A stretch of 55,526 nucleotides of DNA, from positions 1 through 55,526 of the IMG/VR virus record IMGVR_UViG_3300006046_000007. One strand, given 5' to 3'. Positions 135-35,947 of this stretch are shown here, in pieces (within the stretch, counting starts at the first letter, position 1; the number at the start of each line of letters is the position of its first letter). The position numbers and the translations under genes were made by a program. The notes beneath the pieces are model-generated. The model had not been told where the DNA came from, searched no databases, and saw only the letters and a list, made by a program, of their open reading frames with translations. The DNA is from a virus (Duplodnaviria > Caudoviricetes).

Positions 135-2888
135 CTAGGCGTTCGCAAGGTTGTCAGCAATGGTAGACCTAGGTATACCAAGGGCAGCAGCAATCTCGGA
201 TAGGCCACGACCTGAACCAGCCATGGACTTAGCCAATGCCAACTGTCCTGGTGTGAGTGATGATCTGTACCTTGGTGTTGCCAACTCCTTGACCCTGTCC
301 ATGTTGCTGTTGTTCAGTATCTCCCTCAACATTGTTGAAGACACAGCGCCTGCTTGAATAGCATCCCATTCGCGTTGCAAGAACGGTACGTGCTCAGACC
401 CAATCCTTTGCTTAGCTGCCCCTGTCTGCAGGCGTGCATCAGCAAGAGACTGATACTGTATCTTCTTAACGTCATCCTTATCAATGTTGGGATTAGCATC
501 TATTCTAGCTCTAGCTGTTGCGTTGCCAACGATCTGAGCACGGCGCTCTAGAGGGGCGTTCATCTGTGCCTCTTTAAGCTTAGCCTTTAGGGACGCTACC
601 TCTGGAGCATACTGTGCCTTAGCGCTCTTAGACTGTAGAGGATCCTTAATAGACACCGCTGTCTTACGTGCTGTGTTAGCCATAGCCTTCAACGCATTAG
701 CGTGTTGAGCATAGACTACTTCCATAGGTTCGCCAGATGAAAGCTTGTTCGCATCCTTAGTGATTGCTGAATCACCTTTAGCAAACTTACTCACTACTGG
801 TTCAGTAGTCGTAGTCTTTACACCGGTGCGGGCATTAGTTCTAGTAACAGTACGTGTTCTACCTGTAGGTACGTAAACTAATTCACCAGTCTTAGGGTCA
901 ATAGATCCACCCTCAGACGCACGACGTAACCGAAGCTGAGGAACCCTTTCTGTAGCTGACGATAGAGAGATGATAGTAGAAGCACCCTTTGTAGGACCGC
1001 CTTGCCACTTGGCCTTTAGTTGGGCAATGCCGTTGTCCTTCTCTGACTGCTTGTAATCAAGGGTATGCTTCTCTGCATCGATGACTACCATAGAATGCCG
1101 AATCGCACGTGAGATCTCTGCTCTATCAGCACCCTTAATAGTCATGTCCGTGATTAGGTTTGAAACCTTACCCATCTCTTTCTGAGTGTTAGCCTTCGTC
1201 ATCTTCGTCATACCCGAAACTTCAGGATACGCAGATTTAGGGTCGAAGTCACTAAGCTCTGTAAGAATAGGTTTAGACTTAACCTTGCCGCTGTTGTTAG
1301 GGATAACAAGAACAGCATCGCCATCGAAGTCGGCGCCAGACAACTGTTTTGCCACTGTATGGTGAATACCAATAGCATCCCTAGCATTACCCATAATACT
1401 CTTTGCTGTGCGGTTACTATTGTTTACCGTCAGCTGAGGTATCTCAAATGGGCCACCATGCGGATACCGAACGAGGGCTACCCTTTCTCCATTATTGAAG
1501 TTAGGCGCATAAACCTCGGTTGGCCGCATACTGTTCATAGGAAGAATAGCATGACTAGATTGGCGGGGTAGAGCAGCAGCTTTCAGATGTACCGATGCAG
1601 AATCTGCCGAAAGAGCGAAATCTTGCAACAATTGTTTCTTCACAACTGGATTAGTCAAAGCCAAGATGCCGTCAAGTTCTTTTTGTTTAGCATCACGCGT
1701 TTTCGCTAGTTGAGTAGCGGCCAACGTAATTGATTGCTTCGACAACATCTGTGAAGAAAGAGATCGAGCCCATCCGTCCCAAGCACCTTCCTCATTCACC
1801 ATGTTAAGTGAAGAGGTTCGTTCAACGCCCTTGCTATCCTTATATGTTACTGGATAAGTTGTTGCCCCGAATCGATTACCCGCATTTTCTGCGCCTTCTT
1901 TCAAAGGTTTCAAAATGGAGTTTTCTTTAGGGCCAAGCACAGGCGTACCTTTAGGTTTATTGGTGTTGAACCGAATGTCGGTGCCGGCTGGAAGATCATT
2001 AGCATAAATAGCCATGCCCTTGAGGTAATGAGTTCCGTCGACAGCAACTCGTACCTGAGCATAACGATTAGCACCTAGATCTAGTGATGGAACGCCACGA
2101 CGAAGCTCAATGACACCATCCATCTGACCGCCACCATCTTCAGCAAAACGAACTTGTAGCTTTTTAGAACTAACTGATACAGGTTCTGCTTTCGGAGTCG
2201 TAAATGTCAAACCACCATCATCTGACCGATCCTTGATGTTGTAAACAAGACCCGCATCAACTGCAGCTTTAGCTTGACGCCAAGTGCTTCCGGGAAGAGC
2301 TAGAATTTTCAACTCGGTCAACTTGTCAGTACCTAGTTGTGGAACTTTGACCAACCAAGTCTCATAACCCTCATCCTTCAATGCGGCAATCGCAGTACGA
2401 AGTTTAGTGTCAGCAACCCCAAGATAAAGCTCAGTTCCTTTACCAACATCCAACCAAGTCTTCGCATGAAGGTGATCTTTTAGAAGGTTAGAAATTGCTT
2501 GAAGAGTTTTGTCCTTGATGCCTTCAGATGTCTTCAACCACCCGCGAACTGTCGATTCTTTGTTTTCATCACCAAGCATTCGCTTAGCAATCGCACGAAC
2601 TGACATACCTTTGTCATTCTTAAGCTTTTGAGCCAAAGCTTGGTTCTCAGCGAAGATGACATTAGTTGAAACAGAGATAGCAGCACGAAGGTCTGTTGTC
2701 TTGATGCCCAACGTTTGCGCAATTTCGGTATCGCTCATTGGCGGATCTCCGTTGCGCATGGCGTCTAGATGAGCCTTGAAATCCTTAGACCTTTGGTAAG
2801 GAGTGCCACCGCTTCCCCAAGGATAACGGCCAGAACGTCGGATGATTCCAATGTGCTCTAGAACTTCTCCGTTTTCTTCAGGCTCCAC
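135..2888 (-). CDS. Putative single-chain two-barrel (DPBB) RNA polymerase with N- and C-terminal HTH motifs
   Basis: 917 aa; LSGADFDGD catalytic motif preceded by LVRYPHGGPFEI (R-x-P motif of RdRP/YonO-like enzymes); HTH-like segments SDTEIAQTLGI, SVRAIAKRM, LSEIAAALGIPRSTI. Confidence 0.8.
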   Translation of the reverse strand: MEPEENGEVLEHIGIIRRSGRYPWGSGGTPYQRSKDFKAHLDAMRNGDPPMSDTEIAQTLGIKTTDLRAAISVSTNVIFAENQALAQKLKNDKGMSVRAIAKRMLGDENKESTVRGWLKTSEGIKDKTLQAISNLLKDHLHAKTWLDVGKGTELYLGVADTKLRTAIAALKDEGYETWLVKVPQLGTDKLTELKILALPGSTWRQAKAAVDAGLVYNIKDRSDDGGLTFTTPKAEPVSVSSKKLQVRFAEDGGGQMDGVIELRRGVPSLDLGANRYAQVRVAVDGTHYLKGMAIYANDLPAGTDIRFNTNKPKGTPVLGPKENSILKPLKEGAENAGNRFGATTYPVTYKDSKGVERTSSLNMVNEEGAWDGWARSLSSQMLSKQSITLAATQLAKTRDAKQKELDGILALTNPVVKKQLLQDFALSADSASVHLKAAALPRQSSHAILPMNSMRPTEVYAPNFNNGERVALVRYPHGGPFEIPQLTVNNSNRTAKSIMGNARDAIGIHHTVAKQLSGADFDGDAVLVIPNNSGKVKSKPILTELSDFDPKSAYPEVSGMTKMTKANTQKEMGKVSNLITDMTIKGADRAEISRAIRHSMVVIDAEKHTLDYKQSEKDNGIAQLKAKWQGGPTKGASTIISLSSATERVPQLRLRRASEGGSIDPKTGELVYVPTGRTRTVTRTNARTGVKTTTTEPVVSKFAKGDSAITKDANKLSSGEPMEVVYAQHANALKAMANTARKTAVSIKDPLQSKSAKAQYAPEVASLKAKLKEAQMNAPLERRAQIVGNATARARIDANPNIDKDDVKKIQYQSLADARLQTGAAKQRIGSEHVPFLQREWDAIQAGAVSSTMLREILNNSNMDRVKELATPRYRSSLTPGQLALAKSMAGSGRGLSEIAAALGIPRSTIADNLANA

Positions 2889-2890
2889 AG

Positions 2891-3475
2891 TTACACCTCC
2901 TTCATAGACTCAACTAGCTTGTCGGCAACGATGTAACGATCCATGATGTAAGCGATATCCTCCGGATCTGTCTCGAATCTCTGAATGTCATCGTTCTGAT
3001 AGATACGTAGATCATACTCGAGCTCCATAGGACGAACGTTGTATTCAAGACAGAAGAGTGCAGCATAACACTCAAGCTGACTTTTAGATGCTCTGTTTTC
3101 TCCATTCTTAAGATCGAAAATGCGCAACAACAATCGGTAAGGCGAATCTGAATCTGGATTATCACCAAACCAAATCGCATCGGTAGTCCCAAAAGCATTA
3201 TCAGAAAACGCCAAAGGCTGTTCGATAGACATCCTGTAACCGATGCAGTCATTCACATACATGTTGATAGTCTTGCTGTTGTCTGGTTGCTTCAACCCAA
3301 GTCGAATAGTCTCGGCAGCCCAAGCATGAAGACGAGTACCAAGAACAGCTGTCATGTGTTTGTCATAGGCAGCAAGAATCTTCTCATCGTCATAGTTGAT
3401 CCAGTGATACTTAGATGGACTCAGAAAAGCATGACGCCCTTCAATCTCCACATGACGTCGGAACTTAAAACTCAT
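2891..3475 (-). CDS. PD-(D/E)XK (Cas4/RecB-like) nuclease
   Basis: GTRLH, E-Q, FGTTDAI, IFDLKNG, QLECYA motifs. Confidence 0.7.
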   Translation of the reverse strand: MSFKFRRHVEIEGRHAFLSPSKYHWINYDDEKILAAYDKHMTAVLGTRLHAWAAETIRLGLKQPDNSKTINMYVNDCIGYRMSIEQPLAFSDNAFGTTDAIWFGDNPDSDSPYRLLLRIFDLKNGENRASKSQLECYAALFCLEYNVRPMELEYDLRIYQNDDIQRFETDPEDIAYIMDRYIVADKLVESMKEV

Positions 3476-3774
3476 AGGCCAAACGCTCTTTCCATGTCGT
3501 CTAAAACTTCTCGATAGTTGAGCGGATGTATGAACGCAGCAAATGACATCTCATCAAACAGATCCACATAGTACTCTTGGTTGGGCTGACGCACCGACCG
3601 TAGACCACGCTTACTTTCCAGGATAGCCCAGAACCTTCCCCACAAAATAAGAAGGTCTGGTATGCCTTGGATTTGGTTGGAATCTAGCTTGATGATGAAA
3701 CAATCTGGAAAGCGACGACGCAACTCATCTTTCAAGTCGAGCGTGAACTCGCTTTCAAGCTTAGGCATAGTCAC
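3472..3774 (-). CDS. VRR-NUC domain nuclease
   Basis: LESEF...GIPDLLIL...LESKR...PNQ pattern. Confidence 0.85.
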   Translation of the reverse strand: MTMPKLESEFTLDLKDELRRRFPDCFIIKLDSNQIQGIPDLLILWGRFWAILESKRGLRSVRQPNQEYYVDLFDEMSFAAFIHPLNYREVLDDMERAFGL

Positions 3775-3809
3775 CTCCAGACAGAAAAAGAGGAAGAGTT
3801 GACATACCC

Positions 3810-3838
3810 TCCTATATAATGCATTGTTTCAGCTGCGA
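3810..3838 (-). promoter_or_regulatory. Phage promoter-like motif copy
   Basis: Minus strand TCGCA-GCTG-AAACAA-TGCATTAT-ATAGGA matches the 29-bp consensus. Confidence 0.65.
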
Positions 3839-3849
3839 TACACAGTATA

Positions 3850-4407
3850 TCAGACCGTTTGACGCTCGATCTCCGCGTCAGGCACATAACGGTACCTAGC
3901 GGCTTCGTCATAAAGGCTTGATGCTTGTTTCTCAATCCGCCAAACGATGGATGACTCGAGTACTCCTTCTTGAACTGCACAGTCAAAGGCGTCTTTGTAT
4001 ATCTCGCCCGTTCTGTTGTTCTTAACCGGTGGTGTGCTGAACTTCGGCGTACCTGTCCGATGCATCTCGTTCCACTCGAGCACACGATCACGACGTTCCC
4101 ACATCAAATTAGTATAGTGACAGTTACGAAGGTCGCCATCCTTATGCCAAATGGCTGTACAATCTGAATACAGCGGCGGTGGTAGGAATGCGAGCGCTAC
4201 TAATTTGTTGATCTGACGCAGGTACCTAGTGGGTGAGGTAGCACTGGAAAGAAGGATCACCGGGAAACCTCGCTCGTTGACTGTCACTTTTCGGGCGTTG
4301 GTACGGCCTAAGTGTTTGACACGACCGTAAGAGCTGATAAGGTAGTGAGGAAATTCATCAATCGGAACCCATTCTTCATTCTCGAACATTATTCTCCCTT
4401 CTTGCAA
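3850..4407 (-). CDS. NUMOD4 / HNH-like homing-endonuclease-related protein
   Basis: EEWVPIDEFPHYLISSYGRV (NUMOD4); HKDGDLRNCHYTNLMW (HNH-like). Confidence 0.8.
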   Translation of the reverse strand: MQEGRIMFENEEWVPIDEFPHYLISSYGRVKHLGRTNARKVTVNERGFPVILLSSATSPTRYLRQINKLVALAFLPPPLYSDCTAIWHKDGDLRNCHYTNLMWERRDRVLEWNEMHRTGTPKFSTPPVKNNRTGEIYKDAFDCAVQEGVLESSIVWRIEKQASSLYDEAARYRYVPDAEIERQTV

Positions 4408-4627
4408 TCTCGTCTTGTAGATACCAGGCAGCTTTCTTAAGATCTTGTAACGGGACCTCTGTGTCTTTGATGCCGTCTCGCCACAAGTACTTGATAACGT
4501 TCCCTAAGTTGAATCCCATATGACGCACCACTTGAATACACTCAACCCCACTCGGGTGCACGTTGTAGTGTTCAGGATGGTCAATGCCGGCTGGGTCTGC
4601 CTCATTACCCGTAGTTGTCCTACTCAT
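4376..4627 (-). CDS. DUF3310 family protein
   Basis: DHPEHY...ECIQV...FNLGNVIKYLWR...DLKKAAWYL. Confidence 0.85.
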   Translation of the reverse strand: MSRTTTGNEADPAGIDHPEHYNVHPSGVECIQVVRHMGFNLGNVIKYLWRDGIKDTEVPLQDLKKAAWYLQDEIARRENNVRE

Positions 4628-4850
4628 TTGTTGACTCTTATACTCTCGCTACGCGTAACCCCAAGATGTAACTGCTCTAACGTTCCTTCGAGTAGATGTT
4701 CAGAAATCATAGTTGCACATGATGGATCATTGAGGTATAACGTTATATCGCCCGTTGAACTAATCTCGCCCTTGACCGCTACCTGATGTCCATCTGGCAA
4801 CATAATCGAGGTGGTAAATGAGATTGCGTCGATTCCTGATGGTTGAACCA

Positions 4851-5087
4851 TGTAAGTCCGTTTCTTCCTGTAAGTCCGTTTGCCCAGAAACCCGGAAAAA
4901 AAGAATTATGAAACTTTCTGAGAACGTACACCGTATAACATACATTACTTGTATGATATATTAAGTTCGTCTGTCTATAAGTCTTGAGAGGAATTAAGTG
5001 GGTTTGTGGCCAAAACAGGGTAGATACATCCGCTTTCGTCAGCCTTTGTCCGCTCGAAACCGCTGTCCGTTTTGTCCTCGGACCTCG
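4851..5087. other. Candidate replication origin
   Basis: Gene-free; TGTAAGTCCGTTT direct repeat (4851-4863, 4869-4881), related TCCG(C/T)T units at ~5028-5071, AT-rich core ~4896-4998; next to the helicase gene. Confidence 0.5.
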
Positions 5088-6302
5088 TCACGCGGCGGTC
5101 TCAAACCGGACATTTCTACCCTCATGAAAGTTCTTCTTAGCGACCAATGCCTTCCAAATCAGAGCATCGATCCGGCTCTCGCTCATGAGAATGTAATAAT
5201 ACAAATCCTCATAGGGTGTATCCAATCGGTCAATTCGCCCCTGACTCTGCTCGAAGAGCTTATGGGAGTATGTGAGTGAATAGTACACAACTGTATCAGT
5301 TTCAATGCAATTCCATGCTTCTGACCCAGCTTGGTACTGTACTAGGTACAACCAACGACTAGTCTCGGGGATCTCCTCATGACGGTGACCGTTCCACTCG
5401 GCGATGCATATGTCCATCTTTGTCATGAGTGTGCGAAGATCCTCGAGCTCGTAGTCGTGCGTGTAGAAGATGATCATCCGGTCGTGCCTACGCCCTAATG
5501 CGACGATCTCCTCCAGCCGTGAGGGATCACTGTTGACCAGTCTCCTAGCGACTCTGTGCATCTCTGCTACGTCGATAAGCGGCTTTCCCTCATAGATGTT
5601 CCATCGTCGTTTCCAGACCAGGTCAAAGGCGTCTTTGTCAAATACCACCGGCCTCGCAACCAGGTGTCGAACAGTGTGTCGTTCGTAGGGCATGTCAACA
5701 AGAATGGAATCACGTTCTCGCTCCAGATGACGAACCCCGAAGAACCCACGGATTTTCCGGTACTTACCATTGAAAGACCACACGACGTGCTGCTCGATGA
5801 AGTCTGTCCGGTTGCGGTAGAACCCGTGGGCAATGAAAAGAGGGACATAGTCCATCCATGTATCTGCCGGTGTTGCAGACAATAAGATCCACTGGTTATG
5901 CTTGACGATCTTCAGGAAGGTCTTTACCCATGTCCCTGTTCCCACCAGCCGCTGCTCGTCGAAGATGAAGAAACAGTCCTCACGATCAACGTACTTCTTC
6001 ATGTTGTTCCAGCTGTCGATGATGAACTCTTTGTGGCTGTAGCTAAGCTCAGGATCGATGGACAGCCCTAGTGATAACGCATCACGCTCCCAGTCCAGGC
6101 TATTCCGTTTCTTGGCGGTTGTGATGACAATGAGATGTTTTGGGTGCTTCATGGGTGCTGATCGGTCTAGCTGGCCACCACAGACGATCTGAACGTAGTA
6201 AGCTAGTGCTACAAGGGTTTTCCCCGTTCCGACCCCTCCGGCCAGCACAGAGCCGTTACGGAGCTCCTGGAGGGCTATCTCTTGGTGTGGACGCAGTTCC
6301 AC
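5088..6302 (-). CDS. SF2 (SNF2/DEAD-like) DNA helicase
   Basis: LRPHQ, GVGTGKT (Walker A), FDEQ, LSATP, QSQGRIDR. Confidence 0.9.
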   Translation of the reverse strand: MELRPHQEIALQELRNGSVLAGGVGTGKTLVALAYYVQIVCGGQLDRSAPMKHPKHLIVITTAKKRNSLDWERDALSLGLSIDPELSYSHKEFIIDSWNNMKKYVDREDCFFIFDEQRLVGTGTWVKTFLKIVKHNQWILLSATPADTWMDYVPLFIAHGFYRNRTDFIEQHVVWSFNGKYRKIRGFFGVRHLERERDSILVDMPYERHTVRHLVARPVVFDKDAFDLVWKRRWNIYEGKPLIDVAEMHRVARRLVNSDPSRLEEIVALGRRHDRMIIFYTHDYELEDLRTLMTKMDICIAEWNGHRHEEIPETSRWLYLVQYQAGSEAWNCIETDTVVYYSLTYSHKLFEQSQGRIDRLDTPYEDLYYYILMSESRIDALIWKALVAKKNFHEGRNVRFETAA

Positions 6303-9300
6303 TCTGTGCCTCCTTATCTAACAATCTTGCTTCGTTTGTGTCTGAGTCGATGTACCAGTCGCGTAATGACAAAGGAACGTCACCCCAAAACCAGCCTTTA
6401 ACTAGAATGCCGTTGTCAGTCATCTCAAAATCTTCAACTTGACCAATGATGCCGGGTTTAATGCCAAGGTTGAAGCGATGCCACTCCTCAGACCCAGGAG
6501 GATAAGGGTTAAGGCTGCTTTTCAGTTCCACTCTGTGCCTCCTTTAGTTGACGTTCATAAAGACATCCTTCTAACTCAGGCTCTGACTCTGACATCCAAC
6601 ACCAATGAAGTGGACATGAGTATGTGCCAGCTATTAAGTCTTCAACCCCTGCCTGGCACTGGTCCAGAGTCGGTGCTTGACGTCTCCGCCACTTCTTCGC
6701 TATCATGATGCCAACCACCCTTAATTGGTAGAACGTAGGACAATGCCTTGAGTATCCCAGAGTCAATGACCTTAGGCTCTTCTCTAGTCACCTTGATCAG
6801 GAAGACAGTCAGGTCCATCAGTTTTAAACCCTCTTGGAATGGTGTATCAATAACTAGATCCATCCAGCATTCACCGGTAGCTTCGTCCCTACGCCAGTTA
6901 GTCGCATGTCCCAACAGACCACGATCGAAGTCGAAGTTCCAGACTACCGGCACCACCTCATCGGGGACATGGACTGCTCCTTGTTCGATGATGATGCCCG
7001 TTGGGTAGATACGTCCCTCAACCAGTACCAGTTGGTGCTTCAGCTCCAGCTCCATCTCTAACCTCCTTTTCCAACACCTTAGGCATAGGTTCGGCCCAGT
7101 GTATCTTCCCATCGACATAACATGTGTAACGGTATGAGGTTCCATTGACGTGGATCCAGTCAGCTATTAGTTTGCCATTGAGCTTCTCCCAGCCGGGGAT
7201 GATCGATTCCCTACACCATTTACACAGGTCCATTGTTGATCGCCTTTAACTCCTCTTCAGCCTTACTTAGACGTTTCTCATTCGCCGCCAAGGCACTGCG
7301 CCTTATCTGAATTTCATCTCTTAGTTCTTGCACCTCGATCGCTTTGTCATCACGTAGGTTTTGAGACAACTGCTCAGCGGTGTTGAGGACGGGGCAATGA
7401 CGGACTAGAACAACACACTTACCGCCCTCGATGTGCCCGACACACCAACCAGCACCATTGTCAGAATGGAGCACACCAAACTCATCTCGAGTACTAGTCT
7501 TCTCTTGATTCTCGATGATGCAAGCGGTACAGTTACGCTGATAGTTTCCATGTGGGCATTCGTCCTCTGGCCCGTACATACCTGCGTAGCTCATCAGTCA
7601 ATCTCCGATTTGGACGTACACGGGTGAGTATCCACCATGTGGCACTTTTAGTGCCTCCTCCAGAGCGTGTACATGCTCGAGTCTTACGAGTGTATGGTCG
7701 TTTTCACCACCGTTGATTTGCCACCCGACTTGACGGAAGACCATTCCATTCTCAGTAACCAAATCTCCGTTTTCGTTATACATCTTGTACCTCCTTGATC
7801 TTAGCTGCGAACTCTGGCGTATCCATGAATGCACGAGCCTTTTGTAGATCGGCGATGAAGGCATCAAAATCCTTCTTCACTGTTTCGACATCGTTTGTGA
7901 AGCCGTAAGCAATCTCCCAGGCATCACACTGATGAGGCAACTCCACATCAAGAGCCCACAGTTTGTTACCATCACTATCGGTGGCGGACATAGGACCGCC
8001 GTTGATGACGATCTTGACGTCTTCTCCCTGAGCCTCCCAGACGATGTCCTCTGGGTCAATCGCCCACCAGTTTCTGATCACAAACTCCATTTCTGTCCTC
8101 CTCAATGATGCAGCAATCACGTAAATACTGCTCAGCTCGTTGCAGTTTGTATCCATTACGCAGGAATGATGCTCGAATTTCGGCAGCATCCTTAGATGTC
8201 AGTCTCCGCTTGGGCAGCTCTCTTTGTTCCATCGTTCTCCTCCTGTAACCACTTCCTCCAAGCGGTACCGTAAGGTCGTTTTACATCTGAGTCTTTAACG
8301 GGTGTCCCGAACTCACCTATACCGAAGGTGCTATAAGGACCCGCCTTACCAGTCAACCCCATCAGATTAGCTGCCTCTTGAATGTAGTCAAGAAATGCTT
8401 GTTTATTTTGGTCTGGCTTCTTATGCCGACCCTCCACTCTCATGTGAGATAGTCGAGCCAGAAGAAACTCATTCCCAGGGCATGGTGGTAGCTCCGACAA
8501 CCAGTCATCTGAACGCAGTTCTAGGTTACAGTGAATACATCGGACCCAATGACGATCTTTATCATTGAACCAGGTATGCGTTCGTGTATTAACCAAGTCC
8601 TCGGGTGTTGTCTCTCTGCCTCTCATCATCCACCTCCTTCTCGGAATAGAACTTCGACAGGTCTGTCTCCCCGTATACCGCAACGTCAGTGGCGAACTGG
8701 ACCACTATGTCCTTTGGGAGAGGTTCAAGAATCGGCTCTCCGCCCGGATAGTCTTTCCAACCTAGGAATACATAAAGCCGGTTGGGCTCTATACTGACGG
8801 GTTTCTTCCGCGAATGCTCAAGTATCCATACGACTGCCTTACGGCCGACCAGAGTACCGCCAGCCACCGCTATCACTGTCAATAACCAGCTCCACAATTG
8901 ATAGCTCATCGTCCACACGCCCCTGGGAAGGCATCACATCGCACCGCGTCACAGTCCTTGCACATGCCGCGAGTGTGAGTCAGGTCATCGTCGAACCCGT
9001 AGATGACGGGCGCTCCGCAATGACAGCTCTCACAGAGTTTGACATGCACCTTGTTGGCGAAGGCGGCGAAGTGGTCGACTGGGTCTACGCCTTGCTCATG
9101 AGCAGTACGCAGGATCTCAGGCAGCAACGCATCCCTACGACGGATGAGATAGTTGGCACAGTTCTCGTCACCATTACTCAAGCACATAGCAACCGTGAGC
9201 CGGTACTCCATATCCAGAGCAAGGAGTTCCTGCAGTGGTGCATCACTTACCGTCTCTTGGCTCGTGTCGTTCATCTTCTGTTGCCTCCTTCCAGTTGATT

Positions 9301-17681: not shown

Positions 17682-18503
17682 TCAGGAGTTAGGGTTGATT
17701 ACCCCATTATCGATAGCCCACACGTAGTCCTTGTAGTGGACGTTTATCACCTGGCTCTTCACCGTCCAACCCGGGAAGTCACCAGTGTACCTAAGCTTCT
17801 TGCGGCTCGGATTGATTGGTTTGGCAACTGAGTTTCCAGTCGAACCACGCACACAAGGCACATGGAACGGATCGGGATTGATCGTCGTGTTGTCATCCCA
17901 CATGTTTCCATTGACTAGGAAGTGGTCAAAGCCGCCAATGCCGACTTGACCGCATCGGAACCGTTGAAGATGGCCAGTTGCATCATTCTGATCAGATGTG
18001 AACCGGAAGTCGAGCCAACGAGGATCATACCAAGTGTGCCGAGTAGTAGAGCTGATCTGACGCCAGCAGTACTTATAGACGATTTCTGTTCGCGTCCTGA
18101 CCTTCACATAGTCAACAGTGATGACTGGACCAAGGATCCGCAATCCGTCAGGGACGAGCCCGTAATCGATTGCGACCTCACCCTCCCACTTGCAGTTGGT
18201 GGCAAGCTTAGTGATGTCCCACGGGTCGGTGTCGTCAGAGGTAATGGCCGCAACTGTGTCATCACCAGGGTAAAGACCTGCCTGAGCTGCGGTCGGCGCG
18301 TCTTCGAGGATAGTTGAAGTCCAAGGCCCGCCTGGTACCTGTGTCTGATCTGACTGGTAAGGATCACCAGCAGGCGTCAGTGGCAAGAAGCAGAAATCAT
18401 CGATGTCTGGGGGACAATCTGTATCTGCATTGGCCGATGGTGCCGACAGCATAGGCAAAGCAACTGCAATAGCCGCTGCGGCAATTATGGTTCTGATATT
18501 CAT
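17682..18503 (-). CDS. Secreted hypothetical protein
   Basis: Signal peptide MNIRTIIAAAAIAVALPMLSAPSANA; several Cys. Confidence 0.65.
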   Translation of the reverse strand: MNIRTIIAAAAIAVALPMLSAPSANADTDCPPDIDDFCFLPLTPAGDPYQSDQTQVPGGPWTSTILEDAPTAAQAGLYPGDDTVAAITSDDTDPWDITKLATNCKWEGEVAIDYGLVPDGLRILGPVITVDYVKVRTRTEIVYKYCWRQISSTTRHTWYDPRWLDFRFTSDQNDATGHLQRFRCGQVGIGGFDHFLVNGNMWDDNTTINPDPFHVPCVRGSTGNSVAKPINPSRKKLRYTGDFPGWTVKSQVINVHYKDYVWAIDNGVINPNS

Positions 18504-18896
18504 TTTACTCCTAGATAGATAAGATAGAGACCTGCAAGCACCAGTGCCCACATGCCAATGTAGATGATGGCAATGACGACAACGTTCTTAACGGTTGTCA
18601 ACCTAACCATTATGCCACCCCATTCAGAATTTGATATGCCTTGAAAACCAGTCGAGAAGCCATTTCAACCATCGAGACTCTACTCCCATAACCCCTCATC
18701 CGAGAAGAGCTATCATGTACTGAAGCCAGGTGCTGTGGTCTTCAGTAACGTGGTTTTGACTCGGATAATGACTGTGCCTTTCGGGCCGGCATAGTGTGCA
18801 ATTGGGACTAATGGGTCCTGGTTTAAGGTCTCTAGACCTATCGGCCCTATCGCAGATATCAGACATGTGTTTGATCCTCCTTTAGAGATGGGTAGA

Positions 18897-18929
18897 GGGC
18901 AGTTTTTTAAAGCAGGCATGCCCAGGCCT
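18897..18929 (-). ncRNA. Small H-type pseudoknot, copy A
   Basis: AGGC-CUGGGCAU-GCCU-GCUUUAAAAAAC-UGCCC; S1 AGGC/GCCU, S2 GGGCA/UGCCC. Confidence 0.65.
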
Positions 18930-19155
18930 CCACGGTGTCCCCGCTGTTTAATGTTACGGTAGGCTAGGAAGAATTCCTTGCAGGGAGCGCTTCCCGCTTC
19001 GGTCGGCTGCAACCGCCTTATCAAAGCTGACCTACCGGCGTTTTTTAACTACCTAACAATCCGCTGTACGTCGCTTCCTCCACCACGCGAACCTATGGCT
19101 CAGATGGTTTCACCAGTCGCTACGGAATGCCGTTCGGTCTACACCTGACCGCTCA
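18897..19155 (-). ncRNA. Structured RNA unit A (pistol-1 3' product)
   Basis: From the predicted cleavage site to pseudoknot A; stems CGGUAGG/CCUACCG and UUGCAG/CUGCAA. Confidence 0.5.
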
Positions 19156-19285
19156 CCCATTGGACGCCGGAAATGAGATCCCGTTCCGGTCTTTTACATC
19201 TGAGCTTCAGGAGAAGGAGATAACCCGCAGCTAGAGTCCAATGACGCACTAGGCCTAAGAGCTATTTATACTCGCCTAGTCGAGT
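19151..19285 (-). ncRNA. Pistol self-cleaving ribozyme 1
   Basis: ACUCG-ACUAGG-CGAGU-AUAAAUAG-CUC-UUAGG-CCUAGU-GCG-UCAUUGGAC[insert]GUCCAAUGG-GU-GAGC: P1, 6-bp pseudoknot, UAAAUAG, P2, GCG, P3 and GU site all present. Confidence 0.9.
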
Positions 19286-19686
19286 TACTCGTCTCTGCCG
19301 AAGGCCGAGTCGCGAGCCTTACGGAGGAGACGGATGGTTCGGTTGATGGCGCTCCGGTTGAACCAGGTCCAAAGACCATCAACGCCGGCCGTTGAGCCGG
19401 TGACTGCGTCCAAGCAGGCACGACCAAGTTTGTTCATGTACTCTGCTGCTGCGTCATCATCAACAGAGTCCTCAGGAACAAAGCCGAAGTCTTCTCGAAG
19501 TAGCTTGAAAAGGATTCTCCCGATCTCAGTCTGAGTAGTAGTCCCACCATAGACCTGATCGATGAAATGCAGTGTGGGTTGGTCGATACGAGATTCAAGA
19601 CCAACTCCAACAGAAGCCAGACCAGGATTCCACTGGACCAAGAGGTCGTAGGAGGCCTGATCTTCTGGGGTGATTCTTTCTTTCAT
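19285..19686 (-). CDS. Hypothetical protein
   Basis: 133 aa, AAAGG RBS; its stop codon abuts pistol 1. Confidence 0.75.
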   Translation of the reverse strand: MKERITPEDQASYDLLVQWNPGLASVGVGLESRIDQPTLHFIDQVYGGTTTQTEIGRILFKLLREDFGFVPEDSVDDDAAAEYMNKLGRACLDAVTGSTAGVDGLWTWFNRSAINRTIRLLRKARDSAFGRDE

Positions 19687-19850
19687 GGTGTTACCTTTCT
19701 TTTCGTTGGCTCCCGCTTATCGGGAGTAGATTGTCCTTGTTGTAGCCAGGCCCAGGACCTTCCCACAGGTTTAACATTTATCACCTGCGACCATGCGAGT
19801 ATTAGCGTCTCAAATGCTTCGACATTCTCGGGTTCATGATCGGCGATGTA

Positions 19851-20114
19851 TTATGAGAGATTTTGTCCCACGATCTGGTCGAACTGCCAGTTCGTAAGAA
19901 ACTTCTGGATCTCGGGGTCCAGCATGAGCTCTGGTCGATCGCGCTCCACGACATCAGTCATAAGACGACCGAACTCGATGAGTTGCAAGTTGCTCTCAAC
20001 CAATATCCGATTAGCCTTACGAAGCTTTGAAGTGATCTGCCACCAACCAATTTGGTTAGCGAGAAAGGCGATCTTAATTAGGGCGATTCGTGTTGCCGGG
20101 TCCATCTTCTTCAT
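19851..20114 (-). CDS. Hypothetical protein
   Basis: 87 aa ORF with AAGGAG RBS. Confidence 0.65.
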   Translation of the reverse strand: MKKMDPATRIALIKIAFLANQIGWWQITSKLRKANRILVESNLQLIEFGRLMTDVVERDRPELMLDPEIQKFLTNWQFDQIVGQNLS

Positions 20115-20152
20115 CGATAACTCCTTAGATAGGGGATGATGGGATGTGTTTG

Positions 20153-20305
20153 CTAACGATTGAGGACCACCAGAAAGAAGTATAGGGCTAGGAAGAACAG
20201 CCCGAAAGCAAGGAAGTCAATCTTCTTCTTTGCGAATTCGAAAATGAACCCTAGCGCAAACGCGAACACGGAAAGGAGCAAAATGATGAAGTAGAACGTA
20301 TGCAT
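20153..20305 (-). CDS. Small two-TM membrane protein (MHTFYFIILL...)
   Basis: 50 aa, AGGAGG RBS, two hydrophobic helices. Confidence 0.7.
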   Translation of the reverse strand: MHTFYFIILLLSVFAFALGFIFEFAKKKIDFLAFGLFFLALYFFLVVLNR

Positions 20306-20487
20306 GATGCCTCCTATGTTTGAATGGAGAGGAGGACAAGACCCACGAAAATCCCATCCCCCTCTCCTACTGTAGGTAGCGTTTTCAATTGACTTTAATC
20401 ACTTCGACTCATCGCACTTCGATCCGGCCAAAGGTGTTGCCCAAACCTCACGATTTCACCAATGAACTACGCTACAGTGACTTGAGG

Positions 20488-20514
20488 GGGCCTTTTTGCC
20501 GCATGCCCAGGCGG
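20488..20514 (-). ncRNA. Small H-type pseudoknot, copy B
   Basis: CCGC-CUGGGCAU-GCGG-CAAAAAG-GCCC. Confidence 0.65.
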
Positions 20515-20683
20515 GATCTTTAATCGGTAAGGTGCCCGGGTCTCCGCCCAGTGGTCTGCAACCTTTCTGCTTCGTCACCCTTGCAGAGGGTGCTTATTGA
20601 CGCAAGAACACGCCTTTTATGTACCTTACCTACGGCTAAGGGAGTGACTGGTTAGCAACGCCAATTCACTTGCCGATTTCCCA
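20488..20683 (-). ncRNA. Structured RNA unit B (pistol-2 3' product)
   Basis: Stems GGUAAGGU/ACCUUACC and UCUGCAA/UUGCAGA; ends in pseudoknot B. Confidence 0.5.
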
Positions 20684-20814
20684 CGACGCGGCTGGTAGTT
20701 GTCCATGTCGGTGAAAACACCTGTCGACTACCAATTACTTCCAAGCTCAAGGCCTGTAACTTGGAACCGCGCCCGCTCTGAGCCTAAGGTCTATTTAACC
20801 TCGCTCAGACGAGG
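20680..20814 (-). ncRNA. Pistol self-cleaving ribozyme 2
   Basis: CCUCG-UCUGAG-CGAGG-UUAAAUAG-ACC-UUAGG-CUCAGA-GCG-GGCGCGGUU[insert]AGCCGCGUC-GU-GGG; core intact, P2 weak (two C-G pairs plus A.G). Confidence 0.8.
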
Positions 20815-20853
20815 GAGTAGTTTAGTGTGGATCGAGGTCATGCTCAGGACCCC
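20815..20853 (-). ncRNA. Small H-type pseudoknot, copy C
   Basis: GGGGUC-CUGAGCAU-GACCUC...UAAAC-UACUC; abuts pistol 2. Confidence 0.55.
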
Positions 20854-20959
20854 GCAATGAGGCATTCAGTTGAACATCTATAGTGGGCGTTACCCACCAT
20901 CCGTCATCGAACTCACCTCCATCTAAATATGCACGCTCTTTCGAGCCTGACTATAGTAG

Positions 20960-21039
20960 CTCGCACGACGGGATTCGAACCCGCATACGCCGCCCTGGAT
21001 GTCCAGGCCCGAACGCTTTACCAATTAAGTTACATGCGA
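20960..21039 (-). tRNA. tRNA-like element with extended, non-canonical anticodon arm
   Basis: Acceptor UCGCAUG/CGUGCGA, D arm ACUU-AAUUGGUA-AAGC, T arm GCGGG-UUCGAAU-CCCGU; anticodon/variable region 29 nt instead of ~22, with CCUGG-ACAU-CCAGG hairpin; 3' end G-CUA, not CCA. Confidence 0.7.
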
Positions 21040-21086
21040 TGCCTCCCTAACCGTCACACTCGGGGGAACGCAGACGGCTAGAAACT

Positions 21087-21188
21087 CTAGTACCTTCGCT
21101 TCTTTGACGGATTCGTGTTGAAGACCCACGAATAGATCAAGCAGAAGAGAAGAATGGCGAAGACCACACCAATAACAAGTCGGACCAT
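21087..21188 (-). CDS. Small membrane peptide (MVRLVIGVVF...)
   Basis: 33 aa, AAGGAG RBS, one TM helix. Confidence 0.55.
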   Translation of the reverse strand: MVRLVIGVVFAILLFCLIYSWVFNTNPSKKRRY

Positions 21189-21595
21189 AATAACTCCTTT
21201 TATGTGATAGTTAGATCTTGACTACGTTGCGAAACAAAGAACTCTCATCGTGTGAGGTGAAGACGTACATCTCGAAAAAGACCATTGGTACGAAGAACTG
21301 GCAGTCCAAAGGCGAGCCCTCGTCACGTAGGAACCAGCCTTCTTCGTGCTCCTCAAGCCACTGTAAGGCCATCTCTAAGTCAAAATCTCGTCCTGCCTCG
21401 CTCCGAATCACACCTCGAAGATTCTCTGGTGTAATCTTGATTGCGTAAGCTTGCACAGGACGGCCTCTCACTTAGATGTGATCCACTGAATAAGCTCGAC
21501 AAACCCCCACCCGAACAAGAAAACGATTGCTAGAATGATGAAAACAATCACCCAAACAACGCCCCAGGCGAACTGATTGGTCTTTTTCTCATCCA

Positions 21596-31592: not shown

Positions 31593-32465
31593 TCAGATGA
31601 GATCCCAGATGACCCCATCGATGTTGAAGTTGAGACGCGCAGTACGTTCTTTGCCGTTGCGGAATGCAATAGCTTGCGGGTCTTGACTAGACATGAAACC
31701 AAAGTCGACAAACCCGTCGCCATCACCGTCTAGCAACCATCCTGCCACGATTGTCTCCCTCGTTCGAGGAATGCCGAGAGCATCGTAAACCTCGAACAGA
31801 AACACATGCCCCTTGATTTCGAGTACTCGGTTCATATGGTTCTGAACGCTCTTTAGGAACAAGAAATTCGTGGTTGCGTCTCGAGTCCAGTTGGGGTTGG
31901 CCTCATCGAAGAAAGGTCGTAGGTAAGAGTCGGGCTGATCCGTGAACTTTGGCATCAGCTTGTATTCACCCTTGTGGTCGGGGTCTTCCTCCCATTGACC
32001 AACCGCACCGTCGTAAATATTCCGCTCCATCTCAGGACCGACAGTCTCTGAGACCCGTGCACGATATGCTTGGTACTGCTCCATTAGACCGGTGTAGGCA
32101 GCCATCGTAGCAAGATGACGACCTCGTAGAACCCGGTGCCCATACAGAACGCTAGCTGCCGAAAGCGTACCTACGGCCAATGTAGGACCGTAAAGCTTGA
32201 GCAACTCGATTGATGTGGCTCCGTAAAGGCTCACGACCTGCTTCTGCTCGTCCCGTGCGGTCACGGCGTTAGCAGCAATGTCGATACGCACTTTGGCATG
32301 CTCATCGAGAATGGGGTCAAGCTTGCGCGTGGCCTTTGCAGCCAAGACTGCCGTAGCTCCAAGGCCCACGACACCCGTAACGACCAAGATGGTCGGGCTG
32401 TGCTTGTTCAGCTTGAGTAGCTGACGACTACCAAACCTTGTAAGGCTGGTCGGGACGTATTTCAT
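31593..32465 (-). CDS. DUF6353-like protein, paralogue 1
   Basis: KHSPTILVVTGVVG...LAAKAT; GHVFL.EVYDALG; FNIDG. Confidence 0.65.
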   Translation of the reverse strand: MKYVPTSLTRFGSRQLLKLNKHSPTILVVTGVVGLGATAVLAAKATRKLDPILDEHAKVRIDIAANAVTARDEQKQVVSLYGATSIELLKLYGPTLAVGTLSAASVLYGHRVLRGRHLATMAAYTGLMEQYQAYRARVSETVGPEMERNIYDGAVGQWEEDPDHKGEYKLMPKFTDQPDSYLRPFFDEANPNWTRDATTNFLFLKSVQNHMNRVLEIKGHVFLFEVYDALGIPRTRETIVAGWLLDGDGDGFVDFGFMSSQDPQAIAFRNGKERTARLNFNIDGVIWDLI

Positions 32466-35173: not shown

Positions 35174-35947
35174 CTACGGACAGCCCATGTTCTCTTTTGG
35201 GGCCTCGTGAAACCAGATGCTATGGGCGAGACGACCGTCCTTGGCAGTCACCGAACCGAATCGTCCTTCAACCTTGCTGCCTCCAGACCATCCGAACGAG
35301 TTGCCCATGGGAATTGGAGGCAACCCGACATACTCATAGAAGTCATTGAGGCTGGCGTCACCGTTGTCAATGATCAGTCGGTTGATGTTATTGATCGCGC
35401 TCTCGAGATTAGCAAACGATCCCGTAAAATATCGACCAGACCAATCATCGTAACAAAGCTCATCGCCATTGCTGGTGATCATAACTTCTGTGTTCTCATC
35501 GAACGGGTTACGGTCGATCTGCTTCTGAGCCACATCGTTCTGAAGTTGTTGGGTCTTCTTGGGCCCCAACGCTTTCTCGGCCTCAGTAGTCAGATCATCC
35601 AGTCGGTTACTGGTGACGGCGTATAGAGCAGCTACAGCACTGGCACGCTTGGTCAAAACTGCATGTCCGCCAATGGCTGCTGCGATTGAGCCAGAGGCTG
35701 ACAGTGCCGGCAACGTATAACACGGCCAGGTCAGTCGAACGATCTCTTGAGTTGTCAGAGGCGCTGACGTCTCATATGAGTCACGTTCTGCCTGAGCCTC
35801 ATCGACGATGCCACGAGCGTTCCAACCAGCCTTGGCAGCAAGCACCCCGGTTGTCACGACACCAGCGATAGTTGTACCGAGCAACAGCACTGGGCTGTTC
35901 GCGGTGATGACGGACTTGGCCGTCTTAACGTAAGATGCTAGATTCAT
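35174..35947 (-). CDS. DUF6353-like protein, paralogue 2
   Basis: NSPVLLLGTTIAGVVTTGVLAAKA; CYDDWSGRYF; SLNDFY..GL. Confidence 0.65.
   Translation of the reverse strand: MNLASYVKTAKSVITANSPVLLLGTTIAGVVTTGVLAAKAGWNARGIVDEAQAERDSYETSAPLTTQEIVRLTWPCYTLPALSASGSIAAAIGGHAVLTKRASAVAALYAVTSNRLDDLTTEAEKALGPKKTQQLQNDVAQKQIDRNPFDENTEVMITSNGDELCYDDWSGRYFTGSFANLESAINNINRLIIDNGDASLNDFYEYVGLPPIPMGNSFGWSGGSKVEGRFGSVTAKDGRLAHSIWFHEAPKENMGCP

Follow-up and report, generated by a model that had tools for sequence, protein, structure and literature searches.

Frameshift pseudoknots of luteoviruses (such as beet western yellows virus, BWYV) and the preQ1-I aptamer are RNAs of about 30 nt with short stacked helices, a first loop of 1–2 nt with an invariant C, an extruded junction nucleotide that varies and a last loop rich in adenines. 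The ToxI-type antitoxin RNAs of type III systems also fold into a small pseudoknot with an A-rich segment, and form tandem repeats beside an endoribonuclease toxin gene. The P1 helix of the pistol ribozyme is stacked on a 6-bp pseudoknot helix (PMC6154101; PMC4604425), and the PeSL (promoter-early stem-loop) cassettes of T4-type phages are described as GGGG...CCCC stem-loops with sigma-70 promoters that terminate transcription, recombine and have been proposed to isolate gene cassettes (PMC2839356). Here we analysed a phage DNA of 55,526 bases, one complete IMG/VR record (IMGVR_UViG_3300006046_000007; hereafter the window), and three short RNA segments on its minus strand, PK1, PK2 and PK3, whose coordinates are given on that strand and read 5' to 3'. 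The three segments are copies of a small H-type RNA pseudoknot that is set at gene boundaries by phages of many host phyla.

The family has a simple layout. A first helix (S1), a hairpin of 3–6 bp and typically of 4 bp, carries the loop CUGGGCAU; a linker ending in AAAC follows, and then a UGCCC strand pairs back to GGGCA of the loop to form the second helix (S2). The consensus reads gUC[CUGGGCAU]GAc, then nnn-AAAC, then UGCCCA. In PK1, S1 is AGGC/GCCU (18929–18926 with 18917–18914) and closes the loop CUGGGCAU (18925–18918), and a 12-nt linker (18913–18902) ending in AAAAAAC leads to the S2 partner strand UGCCC (18901–18897), which pairs with the loop GGGCA at 5/5 positions. PK2 shows the same loop (20510–20503) on an S1 of CCGC/GCGG (20514–20511 with 20502–20499), followed by the linker CAAAAAG and the partner strand GCCC (20491–20488), which pairs with the loop GGGC (4/5); this is a recurrent sub-variant, and its AAAAGGCCC-type tail is also present in loci L140, L109, L033/L060 and L036. 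PK3 has a longer, 6-bp S1 (GGGGUC/GACCUC), the loop CUGAGCAU and a 14-nt linker ending in UAAAC, and its partner strand UACUC pairs with the loop at 4/5 positions, including a compensated A-U; its tail type recurs in loci L135 and L129. Common to PK1, PK2 and PK3 are thus a hairpin of 3–6 bp closed by C-G around an 8-nt loop CUGRGYAN, and a linker ending in AAA(C) before a strand complementary to loop positions 14–18. The copies stand 300–1600 nt apart, and the 8-mer CUGRGCAU taken alone is not enriched in the window (4 occurrences, 4.35 expected).

We scanned viral and prokaryote genome contigs with the pattern CCTGGGCATG-N(3-12)-AAACTGCCC, which describes the loop with its closing pair and a gap of 3–12 nt and fixes 19 bases. 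At least 120 matches were obtained in the viral contigs and at least 120 in the genome contigs, against chance expectations of about 43 in the genome collection (596 billion bases) and fewer than 10 in the viral collection if the latter holds less than about 100 Gb. (An early pattern, GCCTGGGCATGC-N-AAAA, had returned 88 loci, mostly chance or coding, and served as a lead only.) The viral matches listed numbered 131, of which 122 were unique and 118 had enough flank to examine. The flanks, which the pattern leaves unconstrained, extended the stem by at least two consecutive pairs in 114 of the 118 copies and by at least three in 90. Among the 96 copies with a 5-nt gap, pair 9-22 was formed in 95, with five pair types, and pair 10-21 in all 96, with four. 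S1 pairing at the level seen in these 96 copies was reached by 0/500 shuffles, and slid controls were 28–40% paired.

S2 is fixed in the scan pattern, and hence it was tested on variants found by R1, a covariance model built from 96 copies in other phages only, in which S1 is modelled, S2 is not and no window sequence is included; E-values from R1 are rough, its calibration having been shortened. Two runs of R1 over 120 loci gave 90 and 97 matches, among them additional, weaker copies within the same phages. The variant set comprised 37 rows, namely 36 ungapped 42-nt matches lacking the exact pattern, plus PK2; 13 and 17 rows of the two runs were left out (indels, partial matches and one duplicate locus). 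Pair 15-33 was G-C in 24 copies, A-U in 13 and never unpaired, pair 16-32 was G-C in 31, A-U in 3, C-G in 3 and likewise never unpaired, and pair 17-31 was C-G in 20, U-G in 16 and U-A in one. Unpaired rows were limited to three at pair 14-34 and four at pair 18-30, the latter being the AAAAGGCCC tail variant. Over the whole set 93.8% of S2 cells were paired, compared with 73.7% in shuffles (0/500 reached the observed value) and 26–40% with the partners slid. Kinship of copies within one phage inflates these counts; nonetheless, the changes are spread over many contigs. Columns C12, U13, A18 and A26–A28 were invariant across the 37 copies, so that the unpaired family positions C12, U13 and A26–A28 show no variation, and the junction column 19 was free, with U, A, C and G all occurring. 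The compensatory changes in both helices indicate that the pseudoknot is real. A reading of the window made earlier from its letters alone (the sequence-only reading) had proposed a compact pseudoknot of H type in which the loop is conserved, S1 covaries and an A-rich linker precedes the S2 partner; covariation now backs both helices, including the S2 pairing, for which the 37 variant copies supply the support.

Run on the window, R1 retrieved PK2 with 18.3 bits (E 5.7e-5; match 20480–20521), PK1 with 17.0 bits (E 1.7e-4; match 18889–18936) and the hairpin only of PK3 with 8.8 bits (E 0.2), so that the hairpins of all three copies were aligned. The score of PK3 is weak because its 14-nt linker cannot be bridged by the model. 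We take PK3 as a divergent member because its loop has changed from G to A and the partner strand, in compensation, from C to U, the commonest compensated variant of the family (G15A/C33U-type, 13/37 variant copies). Of the copies named by the sequence-only reading, PK1 and PK2 are true members and PK3 is a divergent one. Its possible degenerate fourth copy at about 19733–19760 is rejected: this minus-strand segment is absent from the 24 R1 matches in the window at E≤10, its hairpin needs two G-U pairs around the loop CUGGGCCU, and it has no AAAC-UGCCC tail.

A contig from an RNA library, derived from a variant strain, spans 18686–18941 and carries PK1 and the Shine-Dalgarno (SD) region unchanged. 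All 13 differences within the 56-aa open reading frame (ORF) that follows PK1 are at third codon positions, and one change lies five bases after PK1. The comparison may be read as modest support for constraint on PK1, and the third-codon-only changes are good support for the ORF being a real gene under purifying selection. Two RNA-library runs gave short contigs over parts of the region, at a depth of 2.5–4, which may include DNA; the contig break at 18941 coincides with a strain junction, which makes the contigs uninformative on RNA ends.

The element is uncatalogued, lying outside Rfam 15 and outside the literature searched. No Rfam 15 family matched it in the region and five carrier loci at E≤10, the only rows being pistol, tRNA and chance rows, so that the comparison with small pseudoknot families proposed in the sequence-only reading came back empty at this threshold; a search mostly without subscription journals and without supplements found no published description. 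The element is like the BWYV and preQ1-I folds in its geometry, with about 30 nt, an invariant C in the first loop, a free junction base and an adenine-rich last loop. Unlike them, it stands after stop codons, before tRNAs or beside ribozymes and not after slippery sites or in the 5' leaders of queuosine genes, and it has no recoded frame, no conserved ligand-contact position and no Rfam match. With ToxI RNAs it has in common the small pseudoknot and the A-rich segment, whereas the window copies are single and dispersed, and PADLOC found no toxin among nine neighbouring ORFs. PeSLs (PMC2839356) and the element are both repeated intergenic modules right after stop codons with a G/C stem-loop, and an early-type promoter follows in 12/117 elements; a PeSL is a simple stem-loop of one phage group, whereas the element is a pseudoknot with fixed loop letters, occurs in many phage groups and is mostly promoterless. 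Two further identities were discarded. The Drum motif was ruled out, being terminator-linked and protein-associated (PMC5737381), and a sigma-54 or phage-polymerase promoter was rejected by eye, as the spacing is unfit and covarying stems are not a promoter property.

Placement was analysed for 119 unique copies among the viral matches listed, in 110 of which an open frame of 60 codons or more, on the same strand, terminates no farther than 400 nt upstream. The stop codon of this frame ends 7–11 nt before CCUGG in 52 of the 110 copies (19 at 8 nt and 18 at 9 nt) and closer than 7 nt in only four, and the remainder trail to 323 nt. Since S1 begins about 3 nt before CCUGG, the usual spacer from the stop codon is 5–6 nt, which we take to be the distance at which the first pair lies just past the mRNA entry site of a ribosome with the stop codon in its A site. 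A same-strand tRNA begins 3–13 nt after the element, mostly 3–6 nt, in 12/119 copies, opposite-strand tRNAs number 0, and further element-tRNA pairs occur among the variant copies. A pistol ribozyme starts 0–1 nt after the element in locus L144 and at PK3. Upstream genes received a PHROG in 27/65 cases, led by Hsp20 (8), phrog_1221 (6) and phrog_4973 (5) with single cases that include an ssDNA-binding protein, a ribonucleotide reductase, a DNA polymerase and a structural protein; downstream genes, with a PHROG in 14/54 cases including a primase-helicase, a ParB-like protein, a thymidylate synthase and a major head protein, are as mixed. Placement is independent of any one gene family.

The sequence after the element also departs from controls. 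Its first 9 nt are G-free in 63/118 copies (226/2284 control windows) and U-rich in 32/118 (144/2284 controls), and none of the three window copies has a U-rich tail. In many copies an SD and a start codon follow within 11–60 nt. Promoter-like sites within 60 nt were found after 12/117 copies, against 18/1325 controls, and most belong to one cyanophage-like, Hsp20-linked lineage.

Named carriers include phages of Moorella, Nostoc, Synechococcus, Corynebacterium, Lactobacillus and Cellulosimicrobium, plus a microvirus, and the cultured carrier phages include DS1 (Cellulosimicrobium), phi673/phi674 (Corynebacterium), NMeng1 (Nostoc), phiEF-1.1 (Lactobacillus) and MTATph1. The genome-scan matches listed come from contigs of many bacterial phyla and a few archaeal bins; maybe a third of them are chance matches within GC-rich genes. 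The model phages Syn9, S-PM2, P-SSM2, P-SSM4 and T4 gave weak partial R1 rows only (≤15.6 bits), and no match was found in E. coli genomes. Many same-strand copies are crowded into a few kilobases in locus L159 (a 301-kb contig; 2867–7592), L196 (4211–10981) and L140 (641–8268). In L159, 14.5 kb hold 10 R1 sites; tRNAs begin about 5 nt after two of these, and a group I intron is nearby. In the 6-kb ssDNA genome of Sigmofec virus UA08Rod_4626 (Microviridae; L331, 1194–1245), one canonical copy lies about 25 nt after the peptidase gene, behind the last gene, and is followed directly by U6; this copy looks like a pseudoknot-type terminator. Three loci of Chloroflexi / Dehalococcoidia (L215, L238 and L260) share a conserved, G-rich stretch of about 60 nt upstream of the copies (…GGGGACUGGGG…CCCCACGGGGGACCU), which suggests a larger conserved RNA with the pseudoknot as its 3' part.

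Bacterial contigs present a further arrangement. In contigs of Omnitrophota, Planctomycetes, Desulfobacterota, Chloroflexi and Firmicutes (loci L219, L222, L223, L232–L235, L246, L247, L257, L267, L269, L279, L314, L321 and others), a conserved microprotein of 22–25 aa, M..R[FY]M[LI].R.VAHC.EGC....SWA followed by a stop, has its last codons and its UGA stop encoded by the pseudoknot's own UCCUGGGCAUGA. A simple rule flagged it in 21/121 genome-scan copies listed, and more are visible by eye. The microprotein copies differ at third codon positions and have no NCBIfam match. The gene after the microprotein encodes an Rrf2 regulator in 6/18 cases, and in others a ferritin, a hemerythrin, a Rieske protein or a GRDB-like protein.

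The closest structural relative is the pistol ribozyme, two of which lie in the window. The Rfam alignment of pistol (RF02679) reads UC[GUCuggGC]GA, then AUAAAUA, then GCccaGA, which pairs with the loop. Element and pistol have in common a 4-bp hairpin closed by U-A and C-G with an 8-nt loop that holds CUGGGC; in each, an A-rich linker comes next to the hairpin on its 3' side and the loop is paired with a GCCCAG-type strand. Phages carry both of them, and they stand side by side in the window, in L144 and in DS1. The element differs in that its partner strand comes directly after the linker and its loop core is shifted 2 nt toward the 5' side. There is no room for a P2 between linker and partner strand and no conserved downstream helix, the flanks being unconserved; equivalents of P2, P3, purine-32, G40 and G42 and the G-U cleavage junction of pistol, with nucleotide roles as given in PMC6154101, are lacking. 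The Rfam pistol model gave the pseudoknots no hit at E≤10 and scored only the two true pistols. The element works like the pistol scaffold and is not a pistol.

A site in Cellulosimicrobium phage DS1 shares 95.7% identity with pistol ribozyme B over 47 nt; the order pistol, about 365 nt, pseudoknot in DS1 is the same as in unit B of the window, and the spacers do not align. In Gordonia phage GTE7 about 330 nt of spacer come after a pistol ribozyme, and the pseudoknot was not found there. ORF-less stretches of 250–365 nt after a pistol thus recur in four actinophage loci (window 20764–20515 and 19218–18930, L209 2135–2490 in DS1, and L344 at about 760–1090 in GTE7), with no mutual alignment of the spacers. 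On the minus strand, the PK3 loop CUGAGC (20847–20842) is fully complementary to the pseudoknot strand GCUCAG of pistol A (20786–20781), and by this complementarity PK3 could be a competitor of pistol A's own P1 loop. Neighbouring element and pistol in L144 can pair likewise, with one G-U pair.

The window has an estimated completeness of 93% (CheckV), and every long ORF in it is on the minus strand. Pfam names among its proteins (tape-measure protein, Sipho_Gp37-like tail protein, holins, tail assembly chaperone and phage ssDNA-binding protein) identify a siphovirus, whose host is probably an actinobacterium; the DNA sequencing runs that contain the stretch are labelled soil metagenomes. A search for relatives through the ssDNA-binding protein found none, and BLAST of the 2.2-kb region against named phages gave matches in the pistol parts only. 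Elsewhere in the window, the same strand encodes two paralogous DUF6353 proteins (31593–32465 and 35174–35947; Pfam E 3e-53 and 3e-52), separated by about 3 kb. A consensus scan of 18400–21400 found no sigma-70-like promoter, and none of the six terminator-like sites in that interval coincides with PK1, PK2 or PK3; these absences would fit one long processed transcript over the region. The spacer RNA A has no ORF of at least 40 aa with a start signal and no Rfam match at E≤10, RNA B has no Rfam match, and units A and B and the DS1 unit show no mutual alignment outside the pistol part. The features of the region are collected in Table 1.

Table 1. Features around the three pseudoknot copies, in the order of the minus strand
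Feature	Position	Strand	Remarks
tRNA-Ser (GGA)	21039–20959	minus	ARAGORN; Rfam tRNA 37.3 bits; about 105 nt upstream of PK3, same strand
PK3 pseudoknot	20853–20815	minus	divergent family member; abuts pistol ribozyme A
Pistol ribozyme A	20814–20765	minus	Rfam RF02679, 46.9 bits (gathering score 34.5); begins directly after PK3
Non-coding spacer RNA A	20764–20515	minus	250 nt; between pistol A and PK2
PK2 pseudoknot	20514–20488	minus	family member, AAAAGGCCC tail sub-variant
Non-coding stretch	20487–20306	minus	about 180 nt; 3' of PK2
Small ORF	20305–20153	minus	ORF list
Small ORF	20114–19851	minus	ORF list
Small ORF	19686–19285	minus	ORF list
Pistol ribozyme B	19285–19219	minus	RF02679, 45.0 bits; begins at the stop codon of ORF 19686–19285
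Non-coding spacer RNA B	19218–18930	minus	289 nt; between pistol B and PK1
PK1 pseudoknot	18929–18897	minus	family member; then SD (AAAGGAGGA) and ATG at 18866
56-aa ORF	18866–18696	minus	start codon 31 nt after PK1

We propose, with a rough probability of 0.42, that the element is a self-folding boundary module, folded beside terminating ribosomes and shielding or insulating neighbouring RNA segments. The two helices would be stacked on each other, with the invariant C and A residues lodged in their grooves as happens in other compact triplex pseudoknots, giving a fast-folding and mechanically tough plug that would resist unwinding. The plug would lie immediately beyond the stretch covered by a ribosome at the upstream stop codon and would so stay folded, at the nearest point to that codon that a terminating ribosome does not melt. 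It would mark the end of the upstream cistron or RNA, whatever follows, be it a start site, a tRNA, a pistol ribozyme or a U-rich tail, and would keep neighbours from disturbing each other's folding and translation. The element may also hinder nucleases at RNA ends that are cut next door, by self-cleavage of the adjoining pistol in the window (20814–20765) and by RNase P at tRNAs elsewhere, where cleavage before the tRNA would leave the element 3–6 nt from the new 3' end. Where a U-rich tail is present, it may in addition hinder or end transcription. Among the roles suggested in the sequence-only reading, an exonuclease block and a tag for a binding partner would both still be plausible.

Several observations weigh against this proposal. 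In the window, no copy of the three stands after the stop codon of an ORF. The sequence-only reading had the copies ending each RNA unit, which the window does not bear out: without a further cut, PK1 and PK2 are internal to the pistol-cleavage fragments, and the spacers before them are not detectably structured, folding no better than shuffles (z-score −0.11 for RNA A and 0.29 for RNA B). Loop and linker letters that are near-invariant across host phyla would be needless for a simple nuclease plug and point to a specific partner or chemistry. The copy in locus L112 lies between two tRNAs, where a block to 3' exonucleases would get in the way when the upstream tRNA is trimmed. In the 90 nt downstream, separate terminator hairpins are not enriched (3/117, compared with 34/1325 control gene ends), and in the bacterial microprotein copies the stop codon is inside the pseudoknot, so that ribosomes must unfold it. 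Because of these points against a purely passive plug, we retain two rivals, a site for a host machine and a module related to pistol.

A conserved host machine (RNA polymerase, the ribosome, an RNase E/Y-type endonuclease or Rho) that reads the element, whether as a leaky terminator or attenuator of the pseudoknot kind or as a signal for processing or standby that sets the expression of the downstream gene, is rather unlikely. It would account for loop and linker letters kept nearly unchanged across phages of Actinobacteria, Firmicutes and Cyanobacteria, a microvirus and the many phyla of the genome scan, and it agrees with the excess of G-free and U-rich tails, the U6 after the last microvirus gene and the SD and start codons downstream of many copies; PeSLs offer a precedent for attenuation by stem-loops at gene boundaries (PMC2839356). 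However, 86/118 copies are without a U-rich tail, terminating copies 3–6 nt before tRNAs or abutting a pistol would block those genes, and the only candidates for a single partner shared by every host are the ribosome and RNA polymerase. We regard as improbable a catalytic or controlling module derived from pistol, acting either as a self-cleaving RNA of minimal size or as a decoy hairpin in competition with the P1 of an adjacent pistol for the pseudoknot strand. The likenesses of hairpin size, CUGGGC loop core, A-rich linker and partner strand, the adjoining pistols, the complementarity of PK3 to pistol A, and a distribution like that of small ribozymes (multi-copy, intergenic and beside tRNAs) favour such a module, whereas the pistol parts listed above as lacking and the silence of the Rfam model count against it, as does the outcome in 11 multi-copy loci (121 kb), in which no ribozyme was found; the complementarity, moreover, may be a by-product of both families preferring CUGRGC. 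To a wider form of this idea we give an equally low chance: a self-sufficient, host-independent RNA device, descended from or ancestral to the pistol core, that would act as a minimal self-cleaving or ribozyme-gating RNA or as a universal "end of cistron" signal touching the terminating ribosome or the exiting RNA polymerase. Such a device would explain both the near-invariant loop and linker across phyla and the exact spacing from stop codons.

A further explanation is mainly a DNA-level linker that promotes homologous recombination and cassette shuffling in the manner of PeSLs, the RNA fold being secondary. Copies do lie at the boundaries of small ORFan genes and are multi-copy in some phages, PeSLs hold GGGG...CCCC stem-loops and recombine (PMC2839356), and promoter-like sites are in excess, if mostly in one cyanophage-like lineage. 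We nevertheless consider a DNA linker quite improbable: compensatory changes keep two helices, including a pseudoknot, a structure that matters to a single strand alone; without exception the element runs in the direction of the genes, with no opposite-strand tRNA; and exact conservation extends over no more than about 20 bases. We rate as very improbable a riboswitch that senses a ligand in the preQ1-I or SAM-II style, or the type III antitoxin mimic put forward in the sequence-only reading. The hairpin, A-rich tail and short second helix do recall such classes; yet Rfam returned no match, the junction column 19 varies freely, the flanking genes are without a common function, there are no tandem repeats, and dispersed copies at hundreds of unrelated gene boundaries, with no PADLOC toxin hit beside those of the window, do not fit an antitoxin. 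Least credible of all is a recoding signal in which the pseudoknot, 5–6 nt after a stop codon, stimulates readthrough or frameshifting. That spacing is the one typical of stimulators of frameshifting and readthrough, but the in-frame extension has a median of 13 codons, with 40 codons or more in 5/54 cases, as in the other two frames; because both 8 and 9 nt are common as the distance, no frame is fixed, no shared slippery sequence is visible, and copies also stand before tRNAs and after non-coding RNA.

The element described here, about 30 nt long and with covariation proving both of its helices, recurs at hundreds of gene boundaries, in phages of Actinobacteria, Firmicutes and Cyanobacteria, in a microvirus and in contigs assigned to many further phyla. 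Its spacing from stop codons and tRNA 5' ends, together with its kinship to the pistol core, suggests that phages punctuate long transcripts with the element. It could bear on the long-open question of what purpose small ribozymes serve in phages, and it is a potential compact insulator or stabiliser part for synthetic operons. As several cultured phages carry the element, its function is directly testable.

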